Below, piece by piece: positions 6,954 to 15,169 of a stretch of 64,000 nt of DNA. How positions within the stretch are numbered: position 1 is the stretch's first letter; each line of letters begins with the position of its first letter. A program made the position numbers and the translations under genes. Origin of the DNA: Candidatus Latescibacterota bacterium (lineage in GTDB: Bacteria > Latescibacterota > UBA2968 > UBA8231); the NCBI GenBank assembly GCA_965223905.1, contig CBDCXV010000010.1, positions 1,632,001-1,696,000 of the forward strand, read 5' to 3'. A model generated the notes under the pieces. It was not told where the DNA came from and did no database searches. It saw nothing but the letters and a program-made list of their open reading frames with translations.

Positions 6954-9689
6954 CTACTTCAGGTAGAGCAGGCGCTGAGTCTGCACCCCGCCCGGATAGT
7001 GCAGGCGCACCAGATACATCCCCGCCGACACCAACGCGCCGCGCCGGTCGCGCGCATCCCAGCGAACCTTATAGAAGCCAGCGTCCTGGTATTGATCGAC
7101 CAGCGTGCGCATGGACTGCCCGAGGAGGTTGTAGATCTCCAGGCGCACGGGGCCGTCCGCGTCCAGGCGATATGGGATGAGGGTGTTGGCGTTGAACGGG
7201 TTGGGCGCGTTGGGCGCGAGGCCCGGCGGCCCGTCCGCGACCGCCGGCTTGGACGCCGGGGCCGCCGGGGTGTCGATGTGGAACCAGCGCGAGCGTTCAC
7301 TCGTTCCGGCCCCGTTGATGGCCTTGATCCGGTAGGTGTAGCGAGTCTCCGCCGCCACCGTGTTGTCGGTGTAGGTGGTGGCGGCCGTCCTCGTGTTCGC
7401 GACCAATACACTGAACTCGCCCTTCGGGTCGACCCCGGGAATGCGCCTCAGGATCACGTAGCCGGTGATGGAGTCGTCGCCGGGATCGTCCCAGGTGAGG
7501 GTCACCGAGTTGTGCGACGCCGTGGCTTCGAGGCCCGTGGGCTTGGCCGGTGCGGAGGCTGGCGGACCGGCCACCGTCGCCGAGATCGTCTCCGACAGCG
7601 CTTGGCCGTCCGAGGCGCAGATTGCCGCCGGGGTGCCGCAGGCCGCCCCGGCCGCGAGCGTCACCGTCACGTCCGCCGGCGAGTCCGGCTCGACGGTCAA
7701 CTGCCACAGGTCCCGGCGTCGGTTCACCCGGCCGGCCGCCGTCGCCCGGCCCCCGGCCACCGCCACCACGTCCTCCCGCAACCGCCGGCCGCTCATCCTG
7801 CTGAGCGGCTCGCTGAACGCGATCCTGAGCTTGAACGCGCGCTCCCCGTCATGCGCCTCCGGCAGGTCCCGGAACTCCGCCGTCAGGTCCGCCGTCGCCG
7901 TCCCGTCCTCGGTCCCGTAGTCGACCGTCACCTCCGAGCCCGGATTCCCTTCGGAGCTCACCGTCTCGTCCTTGCCCTCGGTCGCCTCCGCGTCCTCCAC
8001 CGACAGCACCGAACTCCCTGTGGCTTGGCTCCGGGCGGTCACCGTCTTCCTCGCCGATCCCCGGCTCCCGTGGATCTCATAGAGATATCCGTACGGATGC
8101 ACATTGCTCTGCCTCACCGTGGCGGTCACTTCGCTGTCCGGCTCGTCCGCGTCGCCGTCGTCGCCGGTTTCCAGCACCAGCTCCGCCGTCGTCTGCCCGT
8201 CCGCGAACTCGACGTTCCTGAGTTCCGAATTGTGTCCCCCCTTGATCATCTCGCCGGTCTCGCTGACCGTTACCAAGACGCTCAGCCTGCCGTTGGCCTT
8301 TTCGAAGGACTCATGGCGCGACACCGTGAAGCGCACCGGTTCTCCTTCGGTCACCGAGCCGGGTACCGCTTCGATCGAGATCACTCGCCTGCTGGCCGTC
8401 GTCGCCCGGATCGAGACACTCTCGCTTGTGGGGCCCCCCCTGACCGTGCGCACCTCGAACTCATAGGTGTCCCCCCAGTACAAATCCGTCACCTCGCGGG
8501 AGTTGTAGTTTCTAATCTCGGTGTTGTTGGGCGGGGGAAGGAACTCCTCCGCAACGGTCTTCCAACCCGTCCAGGTGTCCGCGTGAGAAAGGCGGTACCG
8601 GTATTGGTAGTCGTAGCAGACCGGCCGGTTACGGGCGGACTGGGTGTCCGGAGACCACCAACCGAGGTGAATCTGGCCGGGCAACGTGGGATACGCTCTC
8701 ACGCTCACAGGCGGGGAGAGCGGGTTCGGGCAAACGTCGTCGTCCGCGAACCGCGAGTCGACATAGCCGTTCACGCCGAGTCGGTGCACGTTGCTGTCAG
8801 CGGTCCCCCAAGTTGCGTCCGAAGCGTTACCGCAGAGGGGTTGGACCATTGGACTGCACCAGTTCTCATTGGGAATGTCCCACCCCTCCGCAGAAGCCGC
8901 ATCGACGCGTACGATGGTTTCAAGAGTCTGCCAATAGGGAGCGACTTCGCCGAACCTTTTGCGTTTGTCGTAGGAGACCACGACCGCGTACGTCTTGCCT
9001 GCCAAGAGCGGTGCGCCTTCAGGCGCAGTAAAGGTCGCCGTGGTCGCTTCTGGGGTGCTCGGCGGATCTGGGATGCTCGGCGGATTCTCCAAGGTGTAGA
9101 GCTGATATCCGAGGGGCACGGGTTGACAGGGCCAAGGGCAACCAACGAAACCCACATTGGTGAACAATTCGTTGTTGACCAACTCGTAATCCCACGAATC
9201 GGAATACCAGATGCTGACGCTCAACTTCTCGATATCCGCAGCCGCAATGCCTGCACTTACAAACGGGATTTCGACTGACGTGAGCGTGTAGTTGTCTTGA
9301 TCCGGGCCGACGTGGAATGGCTGCGCGGGAGTGTCCCGATGGCTCGACAGTTCCGCTCCGCTTGCGTAGCCGTCCTCGATGTCAGGGGGGTGCCCCAGAT
9401 CGCTCACCAGCACTCGGTCCTGGGCCGCAGCCGGCGGGGCGAGCGCGCCGGAGAGCAGCAGGGCGATCGTGACGAGCAGCGCGTGCGCGAACGGATGTGG
9501 ACCGACCCGGCCGGCCGCGGATACGGCATATGTATGAGGCGAGGAACCGCCGCCCCGGCGGGGCGGCCGGCGGTCAGGCGGAGATGGCGGTCTGGGGGAA
9601 CTTGATTCGGCGTTCGGCGTTCGGCGCTCGGCGCTAGCGACTGCATCCCGTCGCACGCCGTACCCGGCTATCTCTGTTCGACCCTTCAT
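6954..9689 (-). CDS. Secreted modular surface protein: FN3, Calx-beta-like and 'PEAHDG' Ig-like modules, FN3, FlgD/T9SS-like C-terminal domain
   Basis: Hydrophobic signal ending AAAQD; FN3 motifs (LTWDDP..ITGY..YTYRIKA); C-terminal PNPFN..IYNLLGQ..WDARD..SAGMY..RLLYLK; purine-rich RBS before ATG. Confidence 0.85.
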   Translation of the reverse strand: MKGRTEIAGYGVRRDAVASAERRTPNAESSSPRPPSPPDRRPPRRGGGSSPHTYAVSAAGRVGPHPFAHALLVTIALLLSGALAPPAAAQDRVLVSDLGHPPDIEDGYASGAELSSHRDTPAQPFHVGPDQDNYTLTSVEIPFVSAGIAAADIEKLSVSIWYSDSWDYELVNNELFTNVGFVGCPWPCQPVPLGYQLYTLENPPSIPDPPSTPEATTATFTAPEGAPLLAGKTYAVVVSYDKRKRFGEVAPYWQTLETIVRVDAASAEGWDIPNENWCSPMVQPLCGNASDATWGTADSNVHRLGVNGYVDSRFADDDVCPNPLSPPVSVRAYPTLPGQIHLGWWSPDTQSARNRPVCYDYQYRYRLSHADTWTGWKTVAEEFLPPPNNTEIRNYNSREVTDLYWGDTYEFEVRTVRGGPTSESVSIRATTASRRVISIEAVPGSVTEGEPVRFTVSRHESFEKANGRLSVLVTVSETGEMIKGGHNSELRNVEFADGQTTAELVLETGDDGDADEPDSEVTATVRQSNVHPYGYLYEIHGSRGSARKTVTARSQATGSSVLSVEDAEATEGKDETVSSEGNPGSEVTVDYGTEDGTATADLTAEFRDLPEAHDGERAFKLRIAFSEPLSRMSGRRLREDVVAVAGGRATAAGRVNRRRDLWQLTVEPDSPADVTVTLAAGAACGTPAAICASDGQALSETISATVAGPPASAPAKPTGLEATASHNSVTLTWDDPGDDSITGYVILRRIPGVDPKGEFSVLVANTRTAATTYTDNTVAAETRYTYRIKAINGAGTSERSRWFHIDTPAAPASKPAVADGPPGLAPNAPNPFNANTLIPYRLDADGPVRLEIYNLLGQSMRTLVDQYQDAGFYKVRWDARDRRGALVSAGMYLVRLHYPGGVQTQRLLYLK
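9606..9633. repeat. 7-bp tandem repeat (TTCGGCG)x3 + CTCGGCG in the 5' part of the surface-protein gene
   Basis: Read directly from the sequence. Confidence 0.85.
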
Positions 9690-9796
9690 TCCTCTTCTCT
9701 CCTCGATGAATGACAGCCGGGCACGGATAGCGGACGACCCGCTGACTCGGCTGCCTGCCTAACTTCCACGTGGACCCTCCTACCGCTCCTGCTCGA

Positions 9797-9828
9797 TTGC
9801 TCCTGATAACAATAGTTATCGGGAGCAA
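9797..9828 (+). promoter_or_regulatory. lox-like recombination site L (13+6+13)
   Basis: TTGCTCCTGATAA-CAATAG-TTATCGGGAGCAA; arms are 12/13 inverted. Confidence 0.75.
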
Positions 9829-9889
9829 CCTTCTCCGGACGTATATCCTTGTCCCAAAGTCAGTTATGCCAATTATGCCCGCAGGAGAT

Positions 9890-10852
9890 GTGACCGACCT
9901 TCCCGACCCGGCCACTTCCCGGTCACAAACCGGCGAGCGCCTGACCGAGTACCTGGGGGACGCCGATGGCGCCCTCAGCGGCAACACCGTGCGGGCGCTG
10001 AAAGCGGACCTGGAACGGTTCGCGGCGTGGTGCGCCGAGCGGGGGGTCGCCCCGCTGCCCGCGCGCTCGGCCACGCTGGTGGCCTACATCGAGGCGATGG
10101 CGAGCGCGCGCGCGCCGGCCACCGTGCGCCGCTACGTGTCGAGCATCGCCGCCGTGCACAAGGCGGCCGGGGAGCCCGGCCCGCTCGATCGCGTGACCGT
10201 GCGGCGGGCCCTACAGCGCATGCACCGGCGCAAGGGGTGCCGGCAGAGGCAGGTCAAGGGGCTGACCTGGACGCTCCGCCGGCGCCTGATGGAGGCTGCC
10301 GGCGACCGGGTGATCGACGTGCGGAACCGCGCCATCCTGGCCGTGGCCTACGACGCCATGCTCCGCCGCTCCGAGCTGGTCGCGCTGCAAGTCGTTGACG
10401 TGACGATGGATAGGAGCGGCTCGGCCTCGCTCCTCGTGCGTCGAGCGAAGACCGATCCGGAGGGCGGCGGCGCGATGCTCTACCTGCACCGCGACAGCGT
10501 CAAGCTGCTCTCGGCGTGGCTGAGCGCGAGCGGCATCGCCGGCGGGCCGCTCTTCCGTTCCGTGCGCAAGGACGGCACGGTGGGCGGGAGGCTCGATGCG
10601 AGCCAGGTGCCGCGCATCTACAAGGGGATGGCCGAACGCGCCGGGCTGCCGGCGCGGATCGTTGGGCGGCTCTCCGGGCACAGTCCCCGCGTGGGCGCGG
10701 TTCAGGACATGATCGCCTCGGGGATCGGGACCCCGGCCATCATGCAGGCCGGACGCTGGAAGAGCGCCCAGATGGTGCAGCGCTACGGCGAGCGGCTGCT
10801 CGCCAAGCGGAATGGCGCCGCGCAGTTGGCACGGCTTCAGAAACGCGGATGA
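9890..10852 (+). CDS. Cre-like tyrosine recombinase
   Basis: Intact catalytic set: R (LRRSEL), K (AKTD), HxxR (SGHSPR), W (GRW), Y (VQRY); N-terminal SAM-like domain; alternative ATG at 9875. Confidence 0.92.
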   Translation: MTDLPDPATSRSQTGERLTEYLGDADGALSGNTVRALKADLERFAAWCAERGVAPLPARSATLVAYIEAMASARAPATVRRYVSSIAAVHKAAGEPGPLDRVTVRRALQRMHRRKGCRQRQVKGLTWTLRRRLMEAAGDRVIDVRNRAILAVAYDAMLRRSELVALQVVDVTMDRSGSASLLVRRAKTDPEGGGAMLYLHRDSVKLLSAWLSASGIAGGPLFRSVRKDGTVGGRLDASQVPRIYKGMAERAGLPARIVGRLSGHSPRVGAVQDMIASGIGTPAIMQAGRWKSAQMVQRYGERLLAKRNGAAQLARLQKRG

Positions 10853-10898
10853 GCCCCGATGACGTCCAAGGCTTTCCGGTCACAAGATTTGCCGCAGG

Positions 10899-10930
10899 TA
10901 GCTCTCGATTACTATTGCTATCAGGAGCCA
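10899..10930 (-). promoter_or_regulatory. lox-like recombination site R, inverted relative to site L
   Basis: Reverse complement TGGCTCCTGATAG-CAATAG-TAATCGAGAGCTA is 27/32 identical to site L with the same 6-bp core. Confidence 0.7.
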
Positions 10931-10996
10931 ACTTGGAAAGTAAGCCATGTTGTGTGAGCTAAGTGTGACTTACGGGGCGAAAGCTCGTGACCATTA

Positions 10997-11025
10997 GTGA
11001 CTTCCCGCGCGAAACGCGCTATCCT
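10997..11025 (+). promoter_or_regulatory. Candidate sigma70 promoter of the hybrid kinase
   Basis: GTGACT-N17-TATCCT about 80 bp upstream of the start. Confidence 0.4.
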
Positions 11026-11103
11026 CCACTCCCGCCCGGTCCGGCGGAAACGCGGCCGGACCGATCATTCGGAGCCCAGTGAGCTCCGCCTTACCCTGCG
11101 GCA

Positions 11104-13464
11104 GTGAGTGGAGCATTGAACGATCCAGACCCGGCCGGTCCCGGGAGCGGCGCGTCCGGGGAGCGCATCTCGCGGCTGAGCGCGGCGATCCTGCGCATCA
11201 GCGCGAGCCTCGACCTGGCCACCGTGCTCAAGGAGGTGGTCGACAGCACCCGCGCTCTCACCGGCGCCCGGACCGGTGTCATCACGACGATCGACGGGCG
11301 GGGACGGGTCCAGGACTTCGTCACCTCCGGCCTCGCCCCGGAGGAGCGCCGGAAGATGGTGGAGTGGCCCGACGGGCCGCGGCTCTTCGCGCACCTGCGC
11401 GACCTCCCGGCGCCGCTCCGGGTGGCGGACGTGCAGGACTACCTTCGGTCGCTCGGCCTCTCCCCGAACCCGTGGGGCTCGAAGACGATGCAGGGGACCC
11501 CGATGCACCACCGGGGCGAGCATCTCGGCAGCTTCTTCCTGGCCGACAAGGAGGACGGCGAGGCGTTCACGAGCGAGGACGAGGAGATCCTCGTCCTGCT
11601 CGCCTCGCAGGCGGCGACGGCGATCGCCAACGCGCGCACGCACCGCGAGGTCGAGCGGGCGCGGGCCGACCTCGAGGCCCTGGTCGAGACCTCGCCGGTC
11701 GGCGTCGCGGTGTTCGACGCCGCAACCGGCCATCCGGTCTCGTTCAACCGCGAGGCGCGGCGCATCGTCGAGCGCCTCCGCACCCCCGGCCACCCCCCGG
11801 AGCAGCTGCTCGAGGTGATCACGTGCCGGCACGCCGACGGGCGGGAGGTCTCGCTCGACGAGCTTCCCCTGTCCCGCCAGCTCGGGAGCGCGACGACGAT
11901 GCGCGCCGAGGAAGTCGAACTCTCCGTGCCCGACGGACGGAGCGTCCGGACGCTCTTGAACGTCACGCCGATCCGTTCGGACGACGGAGGCGCCGTGTCG
12001 GTCGTCGTCACCATGCAGGACCTGGAACCACTCGAGGAACTGGAGCGGCAGCGGGCGGAGTTCCTCGGCATGGTGAGTCATGAACTGCGCGCCCCGCTGA
12101 CGTCGATCAAGGGCTCGGCCGCGACCGTGCTGGACGCCGCCACGCTCCCGTCCCAGGCCGAGATGGTGCAGTTCTTCCGCATCATCGGCGGGCAGGCCGA
12201 CCACATGCGGGGCCTCATCGCGAACCTGCTGGACGCGGGGAGCATCGAGGCGGGCACGCTCACCGTGCAGCCCGAGCCCTCGGACGTGGCGGTCCTGGTG
12301 GACCGGGCCCGGAACACGTTCCTGAGCGGCGGCGGCCGCCAGGCCGTGCTCATCGACCTGCCGCCGGACCTGCCGCCGGCGATGGCCGACCGCGAGCGCA
12401 TCGTGCAGGTGCTGAACAACCTGCTCTCGAACGCGGCCCGGCACGCTCCGCCCTCGTCGCCGATCCGGGTCGAGGCGGGGCGCGAGGGCGGCTCCGTCGC
12501 GATCTCGGTCTCCGACGAGGGCCGGGGGATCCCGCCCGACGAGCTTCCGCATCTCTTCGGGAAGCCCGCCCGGCCGGCCGGAGGCACCGGGCTCGGGCTC
12601 GCGATCTGCAAGGGACTCGTCGAGGCGCACGGCGGCCGCATCCGCGCCGAGAGCGGGGGCACGGGCCAGGGCGCGCGCTTCACGTTCACGATCCCCGTGG
12701 CCGGGGAGGTCGCACCGGAAGCGGCCCCGCCCCGCGGCCCGACGCGTACGCCGGGGGAGGGGCGGGAGAAGACGCGCATCCTGGTCGTGGACGACGACCC
12801 GCAGACGCTCCGCTACGTGCGGGACGTCCTCTCCGATGTGGGATACGCCCCGCTCGTCACGGGCGATCCGGACGGGCTGGGCGGCGTGATCCGCGCCGAG
12901 AAGCCCCGCCTCGTGCTCCTCGACCTCATGCTGCCGGGCACGGACGGGATCGAGCTGATGCGGCGGGTCCCGGAGTTGTCCGACCTCCCGGTCATCTTCA
13001 TCTCCGGGTACGGCCGCGACGAGACCATCGCCAGGGCGCTCGAGAGCGGCGCGGCCGACTACATCGTCAAGCCCTTCTCGCCGACCGAGCTCGTCGCCCG
13101 GGTGCAGGCGGCGCTGCGGAACAAGGCCCAGGCCGAAACCTTCGTGCTCGGGGAACTGGCCATCGATTACGGCCTGCGGCGCGTGAGCGTGGCCGGTCGC
13201 GCGGTCCCGCTCACGACCACGGAATACGAGCTGCTGCGCGTCCTGTCGGCGGGCGGCGGACGGGTCGTCACCACGGAGGCGCTCCTCCGGCAGGTGTGGG
13301 GGCGCCGCGGCTCGGACGACACCGACCGCGTGCGCACCGCCGTCAAGAAGCTCCGGGCCAAGCTCGGCGACGACGTCGCCAACCCGACCTACATCTTCAA
13401 CGAGCACGGGATCGGCTACCGCTTCGCGAGGCCGGGCAGGGCCCATGAGGCGGTAGCCGGCTGA
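11104..13464 (+). CDS. Hybrid sensor kinase-response regulator: GAF-PAS-HisKA-HATPase-REC-OmpR winged helix
   Basis: SHELRAPL H-box, NNLLSNA, DEGRG, GTGLGL, VVDDD/LLDLMLP/KPF receiver, C-terminal LTTTEYELL...GIGYRF. Confidence 0.92.
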   Translation: MSGALNDPDPAGPGSGASGERISRLSAAILRISASLDLATVLKEVVDSTRALTGARTGVITTIDGRGRVQDFVTSGLAPEERRKMVEWPDGPRLFAHLRDLPAPLRVADVQDYLRSLGLSPNPWGSKTMQGTPMHHRGEHLGSFFLADKEDGEAFTSEDEEILVLLASQAATAIANARTHREVERARADLEALVETSPVGVAVFDAATGHPVSFNREARRIVERLRTPGHPPEQLLEVITCRHADGREVSLDELPLSRQLGSATTMRAEEVELSVPDGRSVRTLLNVTPIRSDDGGAVSVVVTMQDLEPLEELERQRAEFLGMVSHELRAPLTSIKGSAATVLDAATLPSQAEMVQFFRIIGGQADHMRGLIANLLDAGSIEAGTLTVQPEPSDVAVLVDRARNTFLSGGGRQAVLIDLPPDLPPAMADRERIVQVLNNLLSNAARHAPPSSPIRVEAGREGGSVAISVSDEGRGIPPDELPHLFGKPARPAGGTGLGLAICKGLVEAHGGRIRAESGGTGQGARFTFTIPVAGEVAPEAAPPRGPTRTPGEGREKTRILVVDDDPQTLRYVRDVLSDVGYAPLVTGDPDGLGGVIRAEKPRLVLLDLMLPGTDGIELMRRVPELSDLPVIFISGYGRDETIARALESGAADYIVKPFSPTELVARVQAALRNKAQAETFVLGELAIDYGLRRVSVAGRAVPLTTTEYELLRVLSAGGGRVVTTEALLRQVWGRRGSDDTDRVRTAVKKLRAKLGDDVANPTYIFNEHGIGYRFARPGRAHEAVAG

Positions 13465-13699
13465 CGTTCAGGGATACCGTGCGAGCGGGAAGCGAGTGTC
13501 GAGGATCCCGGATCTCACTCCCGGTCCACCGCGGGAGCGCGCCGGAAGGCCCACAGACAGATCAGGAAGGCGGCGGCGGTCTCCACCAGCAGGATGGAGA
13601 TGGGCAGGTAGCTGCCGACCACGGCGGACGCCAGGGAGACCCGCACCCCCCGAAGCGGGGGATGTCCCGGTGGTCGAGAGGCCGCGGGGAGACGGCGGC

Positions 13700-14152
<453 letters not shown>

Positions 14153-14209: not shown

Positions 14210-15169
14210 GTGCGGGGGAGCTGCTGCGGTCAGCGGCCCGGCACTTCGCCGGTGCTGGCGGCTCTCACCGCGGCTTCGGTGCGAGGGCTCACCGCCACCG
14301 GGGCAGGCGCCGGCCAACGCCTGCGCCGGGTCCTGAAAGATGCGGCCACCGGGGTGCGTACGGCGCCCTTGTGCTTTGCTTCGCGCGGCTTTTCCCTGCA
14401 TGCGGCAACGCGGATCGCCGGCCCTGACCGGCGCGGGCTCGAACGCTTATGCCGCTACGTGGCCCGGCCGGCCCTGGCGGGGGGGCGTCTGCGCATTCTC
14501 GATGCCGACCATCTTTCCTTCGCGCTCAAAACGCCGTGGTCGGATGGGACCCGCCCTCTCCTGCTGTCTCCGATGGAACTGCTGGAGAAGCTGGCGGCTC
14601 TGGTTCCCCCGCCCCGGTTTCATCTCCTGCGCTACCACGGGGTCCTGGCGCCCCGGGCCCGGGCCCGCGACCGCATCGTGCCGGCCCAGCCGGGTGCCGA
14701 GCCGTCGGCGGCAGACGCCTCGACGAGCGCTGCGTCCTGCGGCCATCGACTGCGCTGGGCGACCCTGCTGGCGCGGGTGTTTTCCTCCGACCTCAGCGAA
14801 TGCGCGGTCTGTGGCGGTCGCCTGAGAATCATCGCCGCCCTGACCGATCCGGCCTCGATCCGGACCTGTCTGGAGGGGGTAGGGCTGCCGGCGATGCCCC
14901 CGCCGAGGGCCCCGCCTGAGCCGCTGTTCGAGTTCGCCGCCTGACCTCCTCCGCGATTCGCTCCCTGCGCCGTGAGCCGTACGGAGGAGTACGCCCTCAA
15001 ATACCAGATTGACCCCTGAAACGCGCCGAAATCCTTTACAACGGTGCTCGGAGCAGGCCCGAACGATTCGGTGCGACGACAAGCGATTCATCAGGAACCC
15101 TGCCTAACCCTTGACAACAGTTTCAGCGAATTGATAGTACCGATATCGGTGCCCTTATTTTTCCTATAC
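14210..15169 (+). mobile_element. 5'-truncated IS91/ISCR-family rolling-circle transposase (ends 14944) with downstream oriIS-like end
   Basis: GFSLHA, LERLCRYVARP, PPRFHLLRYHGVLAP, CxxCGG motifs; TTCCTATAC at 15161-15169 resembles ISCR oriIS. Confidence 0.8.

Follow-up and report, generated by a model that had tools for sequence, protein, structure and literature searches.

A Cre-type recombinase gene bracketed by lox-like sites in a Latescibacterota genome, most likely an inversion switch between an adhesin gene and a sensor-regulator gene

The window analysed here is a stretch of 64,000 nucleotides from the genome of a Candidatus Latescibacterota bacterium (G000; C10:1632001-1696000; a 7.9-Mb assembly with 64% G+C). 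At 9797-10930 it carries a cassette made up of a gene for a Cre-type tyrosine recombinase (REC; 9866..10852, + strand; 328 aa) and two inverted lox-like sites, site L (9797..9828) and site R (10899..10930), which flank the gene on either side. REC is the sole family-supported gene between these sites. To the left, a gene for a surface or adhesin-like protein with fn3 and FlgD_ig domains (6954..9689, - strand; 911 aa from the ATG at 9689) reads away from the cassette, and to the right lies HKRR (11116..13464, + strand), the gene of a hybrid sensor kinase-response regulator with the architecture GAF-PAS-HisKA-HATPase-receiver-OmpR-type DNA-binding domain. For HKRR the TTG at 11116 is a likelier start than the in-frame GTG at 11104 of the open reading frame (ORF) listing. 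The original prediction, made from the letters of this stretch, had placed the ATG of the surface-protein gene 108 bp from site L, with which our coordinates agree, and the geometry that it described, with a surface-protein gene on one side and a hybrid kinase on the other, both reading outward, is kept across homologous loci.

Site L consists of two 13-nt arms around a 6-bp core (CAATAG, 9810-9815) and reads TTGCTCCTGATAA-CAATAG-TTATCGGGAGCAA, the arms being complementary to each other at 12/13 positions. Site R is inverted relative to L; its core reads CTATTG on the + strand (10912-10917) and the reverse complement of the whole site is TGGCTCCTGATAG-CAATAG-TAATCGAGAGCTA, with arms that are merely 8/13 palindromic. 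L and inverted R are identical at 27/32 positions, including all six positions of the asymmetric core, and the arms hold all five mismatches. The 13+6+13 site pair with two CAATAG cores that had been predicted can, therefore, be read directly in the sequence. The site can alternatively be parsed as 12/13 + 8 + 12/13, as in loxP, with GATA adjoining the spacer. A repeat search of 9300-11400 returned L/R as the longest inverted repeat (33 nt, 88%), the runner-up being 30 nt long at 70%. When the 300 nt before the ATG were compared with the 300 nt after the stop, the top inverted 32-mer match was 28/32, while 300 shuffles of these flanks gave a mean of 19.1, a maximum of 22 and no case (0/300) at or above 27. 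The inverted pairing of L and R is far beyond chance. Exact copies of site L occur twice in the 7.9-Mb genome, each within a cassette copy, and a scan of the genome with a weight matrix yielded just four sites, those of the two cassettes (scores 33.9-42.6; next best 19.9). The half-site consensus of 184 arms is T-W-G-C-T-C-N-C-G-A-T-A-A. Active native sites of Cre-type enzymes are described as having a G(T)-A-T(G)-A motif near the spacer and as lying within ~1 kb of the gene (PMC10250229). Both L and R have the simple build of a Cre-type target site, i.e., two inverted arms of ~13 nt with a 6-8-bp asymmetric spacer close to the gene, and together they form what is seen in inversion switches: inverted repeats that bound a segment with a dedicated recombinase inside.

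The protein encoded by REC has the Pfam domains Phage_integrase and Phage_int_SAM_1 and matches Cre over its full length (phmmer against the PDB, E 6.1e-29; residues 12-317 against Cre 14-333). Its residues R167, K195, H272, R275, W298 and Y307 align with R173, K201, H289, R292, W315 and Y324 of Cre, so that all six residues of the catalytic set R-K-H-R-W-Y are present; they are, moreover, invariant in an alignment of 27 sequences. The intact Cre-type recombinase of the original prediction is thus borne out. An AlphaFold2 model built from the same alignment was of low confidence (mean predicted local distance difference test score 52.7; predicted template modelling score 0.36) and too poor for a fold comparison. 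The ORF listing reaches back to a GTG at 9770, through site L, but since the homologues measure 328 aa we take the conserved ATG at 9866 as the start. Relatives of REC are numerous (2048 matches), the best 120 showing 70-92% identity and mostly measuring 328 aa. A scan of viral contigs returned distant relatives alone (28-31% identity, 5 loci), and a phage origin of the gene was rejected because no close relative was found there.

Homologous loci were gathered from reference genomes, metagenome contigs and whole-genome searches, and 69 of them, with 53-100% protein identity, were kept after exclusion of rows with identical sequence (L022, L023, L026, L027, L090) and duplicates (L006-L010, L012, L014). 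In 60/69 loci an inverted lox-like pair was found with one site on each side of the gene, in a census whose weight matrix derives from these very pairs. Single sites were present downstream only in 4/69 loci and upstream only in 2/69, a contig end truncating one of the latter (L066); in L024 both sites follow the gene, and 2/69 loci have no site at all. The 6-bp cores are identical within the pair in 58 of the 60 pairs, while the arms drift. Among the first 34 distinct pairs the cores show 0/204 mismatches and the arms 105/884 (Fisher p 1.7e-10, a test that overstates independence because the loci are related to one another), and the two positions that flank the core show 13/68. Between loci the cores do differ, with at least 16 distinct ones. 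Strand exchange over a 6-bp overlap, as carried out by Cre on loxP, is an established mechanism, and the identity of cores within pairs is the pattern that would be expected of partner sites recombining across such an overlap.

The two pairs with unequal cores, L073 and L080, come from one genome (G907). In both, the core is CTGTAG in site L but TTGTAG in site R, and the genome group holds each of these cores in pure form with the same arms; they may be hybrids formed by exchange between copies. The idea that different cores keep copies within a genome apart fits L002/L003 and L045/L063, but it is ruled out by copies in G422 and G907 that share both arms and core (L082, L083, L087, L088). Some of the more distant relatives are built differently. 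In L024 (2143-2531), a 56%-identical relative, inverted sites with the core CTGTGA bracket a non-coding segment of 325 bp just downstream of the recombinase gene, and an AT-rich promoter-like stretch adjoins the first site, as in the classical arrangement in which an invertase gene neighbours the promoter that is inverted. In a group with 58-63% identity (L015, L020, L021, L058-L061, L069, L071, L072, L089, L094, L095) site R lies ~145-310 nt past the stop, compared with 47-82 nt in close relatives; these cassettes hold extra non-coding DNA and have no adjoining kinase gene. The position on the kinase side is taken by a GerE/LuxR-type regulator gene in L069 and by another integrase gene in L015. 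In G951 the same cassette sequence stands at the ends of two contigs, L090 (C3:1-4506) and L091 (C5:1693112-1700080), and assemblies may break at repeated cassettes.

Three of the loci hold a cassette that is inverted with respect to homologous flanks, and in each of them the breakpoints fall within the sites. The flipped L097 (G886) and its relative L096 (G452) are colinear in the cassette (92.0% over 1144 bp), while their flanks are exchanged in reverse, the left one of each matching the right one of the other (88.4% over 370 bp and 96.6% over 385 bp). The metagenome contig L018 is likewise colinear with L053, L067, L078 and L055 in the cassette (88-91%) and reversed in both flanks; here the upstream gene, which diverges from REC, encodes a truncated kinase N-terminus, and the downstream gene, which runs in the direction of REC, encodes a Calx-beta/SWM surface protein. 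The third case occurs within a single genome, G417, where L066 and L093 are 99.4% identical and colinear in the cassette, with the kinase flank reversed at 98.6% identity. L066 stands at a contig start, so that the junction lies at a contig end, beside an unflipped copy that is 98.6-99.4% identical in the same assembly. When contig C1 of G417 was treated as circular, no continuation of REC past residue ~320 and no right-hand site for L066 were found; L066 may represent a second copy or else a minority form. The cores of the flipped loci differ (TTGTAG, TTGCAT and CTGTAG) and the three flips are, therefore, separate events. Both orientations, with breakpoints at the repeats, are thus found between genomes as well as between two copies in one genome. 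The original prediction had pointed to homologous loci as the place where paired sites and both orientations should be seen, and the survey turned up both.

The genes beside the cassette are conserved in type. In 39 loci HKRR follows REC on the same strand. The neighbour on the side of site L is a large adhesin-type gene, with its 5' end towards the cassette, in 15 of 18 loci examined, and its domains vary: fn3/FlgD_ig in the window, fn3 in copy B (the second copy in G000), L001 and L097, Calx-beta and cadherin-like domains in L002, LRR in L003, CarboxypepD_reg/SdrD_B in L004 (~900 bp off), Calx-beta with Big in L016, with SWM in L018 and with SRCR in L021, fn3 and SWM in L094, CARDB in L069, cadherin-like in L071, SWM and Big_5 in L011, and fn3/Calx-beta/cadherin behind an inserted transposase gene in L096. 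Long ORFs with no Pfam match take this position in L089 and L015, and in L005 the nearest called ORF on that side is an aminotransferase gene, 1.75 kb off. The adhesin gene of L096 (5710-7131) is broken by a DDE transposase gene (DUF772/DDE_Tnp_1) and its kinase gene is cut to approximately the first 226 residues, i.e., this locus is decaying. In the window, a G+C-rich stretch at 9470-9657 with GGCGTTCGGCG-type repeats has a summed contig depth of ~3,700-27,000 in the four sequencing runs, against tens alongside, and is common to many other sequences in those samples.

Three non-coding stretches around REC are conserved. At the inner-left end (9829..9865, + strand), the 5' region of REC, an alignment of 23 loci shows a conserved ACGTATATCCTTG block with a -10-like TATATC at 9842-9847, which together form a putative REC promoter. 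Because site L ends 37 nt before the ATG of REC, the -35 element of any REC promoter must overlap the inner arm of L. The GGAG-type ribosome-binding position of REC is degenerate in the window (AAAG). A GTCAC-like box at the start of REC was considered as a regulator site and rejected, as the same alignment shows it to be spacer between the GGAG ribosome-binding site and the ATG. At the inner-right end (10853..10898, + strand) a conserved GGTCACAA block is found, and here a weak outward-facing promoter-like motif, ATGACG (10859-10864) followed after 18 nt by CAAGAT (10883-10888), ends 10 nt short of site R. This motif reaches at least 8/12 in 16/58 loci, compared with 5% of shuffles and 2/58 on the opposite strand, and in the 16 loci that have it, it ends 7-16 nt short of site R. 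Outside the cassette, 10931..11115 (+ strand) is a conserved region with repeated GTGA/GTGAC boxes, a promoter-like motif and a leader stem, with a putative regulatory function. The motif on this kinase side, GTGACT (10997-11002) followed after 17 nt by TATCCT (11020-11025), reaches at least 8/12 in 35/58 loci, compared with 8% of shuffles. The leader of the kinase gene (11026-11118) can fold into a long stem, CTCCACTCC ... GGAGTGGAG, which is kept in the 23 aligned loci and extends up to a GGAG ribosome-binding site. No terminator-like site was found in a scan of 9400-11300.

The genome holds the cassette twice. A duplicated unit with both sites, REC and HKRR (9711..13604, + strand) recurs at C10:475617-479510 in the same orientation (3894 bp, 99.67% identity); it spans from 86 bp outside site L to 2.7 kb past site R, and the two cassettes lie 1.17 Mb apart on contig C10. 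Four more HKRR paralogues (55-67% aa identity) are present in G000, at C10:50777-53083, C2:564970-567297, C9:463627-465732 and C9:873682-876015. The DNA upstream of each is AT-rich, with GTGA/TGAT-type repeats, and none of the four has a cassette beside it; two of them have, 4-5 kb upstream, genes with the C-terminal sorting-type domain of the surface protein in the window. Further to the right, 13496-14152 resembles a C-terminal piece of an RND-type transporter and 14210-14944 is an IS91-type transposase fragment (Pfam Y2_Tnp) that has dozens of repeats in the genome at 85-97% identity, many of them on C10, C11, C1 and C2; the transporter piece is likewise repeated beside Y2_Tnp fragments. 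The window lies within a heavily rearranged region.

The lox-bracketed REC cassette is most likely a Cre-type inversion switch that acts between an adhesin gene and a sensor-regulator gene. REC, as the candidate catalyst, would bind the four half-sites of L and R, exchange strands within the identical 6-bp cores and flip its own gene, and the two copies in G000 would presumably still do so. The cassette lies in the divergent intergenic region between the adhesin-like gene on the left and HKRR on the right. Outgoing transcription at its 3' end would come from read-through of REC, to which some relatives would add an outward promoter just ahead of site R; with the assembled orientation it would enter the kinase gene and after inversion the adhesin gene. 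Such outgoing transcription is in keeping with the result of the terminator scan and with the outward motif in 16/58 loci. The inner arm of site L, which any REC promoter must overlap, moves with the cassette, so that REC should be expressed in either state; bound at this arm, the enzyme could lower its own production. The outcome would be phase-variable expression of the adhesin, with the assembled state as the majority. Of the kinase-linked loci (n=42), 39 have the orientation of the window and 3 are flipped, a census that fits a majority state in which the adhesin is uncoupled and a minority state in which it is coupled. We consider the full explanation, i.e., a self-flipping cassette at 9797-10930 that redirects transcription between the kinase and adhesin genes, to be probable.

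Several observations weigh against this explanation. The orientation count indicates that inversion is rare, strongly biased, or lost in many lineages. The two cassettes in G000 share one orientation, and the ~1.1-kb flip that had been predicted for the window is, therefore, upheld by both orientations at homologous loci and not by the copies in its own genome. In contigs of four sequencing runs over 9000-11800 no strand-changing joint was found among the 15 joints listed, and the contigs that cross site L (X2 record 11, X4 record 26) and site R (X1 record 7, X2 record 14, X4 record 31) have the reference orientation; these contigs are short, mostly 120-270 nt, and since assembled contigs drop rare variants they are silent on rare flipped molecules. 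Site R of the window is the more degenerate one (8/13 palindromic arms, five mismatches to L, a matrix score of 33.9 compared with 42.6) and this copy could be slow or locked. With regard to transcription, the outward motif in the window matches at 7/12 positions alone, no sigma-70-type promoter was found in a scan of 9400-11300, and the kinase gene, preceded by a conserved promoter-like region of its own beyond site R, may be independent of the cassette. The unequal cores of L073 and L080, which differ at core position 1, depart from the general pattern, and the relatedness of the loci and the derivation of the matrix, both mentioned above, temper the statistics of the sites.

Alternatively, the sites may serve mobility, with inverted lox-like ends allowing integration or double-crossover exchange of cassettes and flipping as a by-product. 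The spread of the gene is in keeping with this. Within the phylum of the window REC was found in 1/168 genomes, G000 itself (E <= 1e-60), compared with 21/301 and 27/301 sampled genomes of the groups around G168 and G422, where a single genome can have as many as 7 matches, and 3/401 genomes of the phylum of G169; the record titles of cassette-bearing sequences name Longimicrobiales and Vicinamibacterales metagenome-assembled genomes (MAGs). The window and L001, a Longimicrobiales MAG, share 87.9% DNA identity over 5.6 kb (7889-13451), comprising the N-terminal part of the adhesin, the cassette and the kinase gene, which indicates that the whole block moved between distant lineages. The duplication of the 3.9-kb unit at 99.67% identity, the absence of a kinase gene beside the cassette in 27/69 loci, and transposase or integrase genes near several loci point in the same direction. 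However, the homology between loci does not stop at the outer edges of the sites: it passes into the promoter and gene of the kinase and, in L001, into the adhesin gene, and the duplicated unit in G000 likewise starts 86 bp outside L and ends 2.7 kb beyond R. Moreover, no circle can be excised between inverted sites whose asymmetric cores are identical, and the scan of G000 gave neither an empty target site nor a solitary site away from a cassette. We regard mobility as the purpose of the sites, therefore, as unlikely. An insertion sequence or transposon with terminal inverted repeats was rejected for a similar reason, as homology runs past both sites in G000 (9711-13604) and past R in most loci.

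Somewhat less likely still is that in G000 the sites are binding sites only, through which the enzyme regulates itself or its neighbours, with copies that no longer recombine. The necessary overlap of any REC -35 region with the inner arm of site L would suit such a role, as would the degenerate site R and the single orientation of both copies, but the core of L and R is preserved at 6/6 positions despite five arm mismatches, which is the signature of partner sites throughout the family; every catalytic residue is kept and close relatives have flipped. The reaction that matters could also be one between the two cassettes 1.17 Mb apart on C10, giving large inversions or deletions. Both copies carry identical sites with the same core, genomes with several copies sharing arms and core exist (L082, L083, L087, L088), and the hybrid cores of L073 and L080 might have arisen through exchange between copies. 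Recombination of like sites, which are in direct orientation in the two copies, would, however, delete 1.17 Mb; what is conserved over 60 loci, some of them in genomes with only one match, is the local pair around a single gene, and all three rearrangements seen are local flips. This makes a primary role for the reaction between cassettes very improbable.

A local inversion switch has parallels in several known systems. The Hin/hix system of Salmonella, which brings about flagellar phase variation, uses a serine recombinase that requires Fis and an enhancer and is encoded inside the segment that it flips. The cassette shares with it the recombinase gene inside the invertible segment, the short inverted end sites and the neighbouring surface-protein gene, but its enzyme is a Cre-type tyrosine recombinase. 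Flp/FRT of the yeast 2-micron plasmid works on 599-bp repeats, and inversion there serves copy-number amplification. It resembles the present case in that a simple tyrosine recombinase, without accessory factors, inverts a segment that holds its own gene; it differs in belonging to a eukaryotic plasmid and in its copy-number role, as opposed to the gene switching proposed here. The natural role of Cre in phage P1 is dimer resolution and cyclisation. With Cre/loxP and simple Cre-type enzymes the cassette has in common the full-length similarity, the catalytic residues, two inverted arms of ~13 nt, a short asymmetric spacer and the adjoining GATA block, while the native reaction here would be inversion of the enzyme's own gene and the site measures 32 nt as 13+6+13. 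The search for Cre-type enzymes described in PMC10250229 was directed at single palindromic sites near the gene, whereas here two inverted sites bracket the chromosomal gene of the enzyme itself. Among tyrosine recombinases that act on surface or signalling functions, PsrA of the pneumococcal cod locus is described as encoded within its own locus (PMC7096588), and the RecV switches of C. difficile include the signal-transduction switch cmrRST (PMC6837544). Together with FimB/FimE-fimS these are alike in that a tyrosine recombinase inverts a short segment bounded by repeats and creates heterogeneity in surface structures or signalling; in contrast, their segments are promoters or parts of coding sequences, the enzymes are not close relatives of Cre and the repeats are not of the lox-type 13-6-13 form. 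What is distinct here is the combination of a close Cre relative with minimal lox-type sites, a segment that is essentially the recombinase gene alone, a conserved and transferable three-part architecture, and highly diverse cores. A literature search returned no description of such an arrangement, and the ~500 predicted recombinase/site pairs in the supplement of PMC10250229 may include relatives.

We tentatively extend the switch to a wider scheme, which we put forward as a possibility that is more doubtful than the switch itself: the Cre-type flip cassette and the linked sensor kinase-regulator may form a horizontally transferable phase-variation module that is spread across phyla and placed before diverse genes for adhesins and eukaryote-like repeat proteins. 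The regulator would bind the GTGAC-type boxes and might make flipping, or its read-out, responsive to an environmental signal, and the family would amount to a natural collection of Cre/lox-type pairs, dozens in number and mutually orthogonal, with 16 or more cores. That REC and its sites may be a new orthogonal recombinase/lox pair, as had been suggested for the window, is plausible.

Cre-type recombinases are central to genome engineering, and the natural roles of most of their chromosomal relatives are little known. Here a close relative of Cre seems to serve in a self-contained inversion switch pared down to two 32-nt sites and one gene. The arrangement has been kept, among uncultured bacteria from several phyla, at dozens of loci, typically at the start of a large adhesin-like gene. 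If this is true, it would provide many natural enzyme/site pairs with different spacers as candidate orthogonal tools and it would, furthermore, represent a widespread class of phase-variation switches in poorly studied lineages, tied to a dedicated sensor-regulator.

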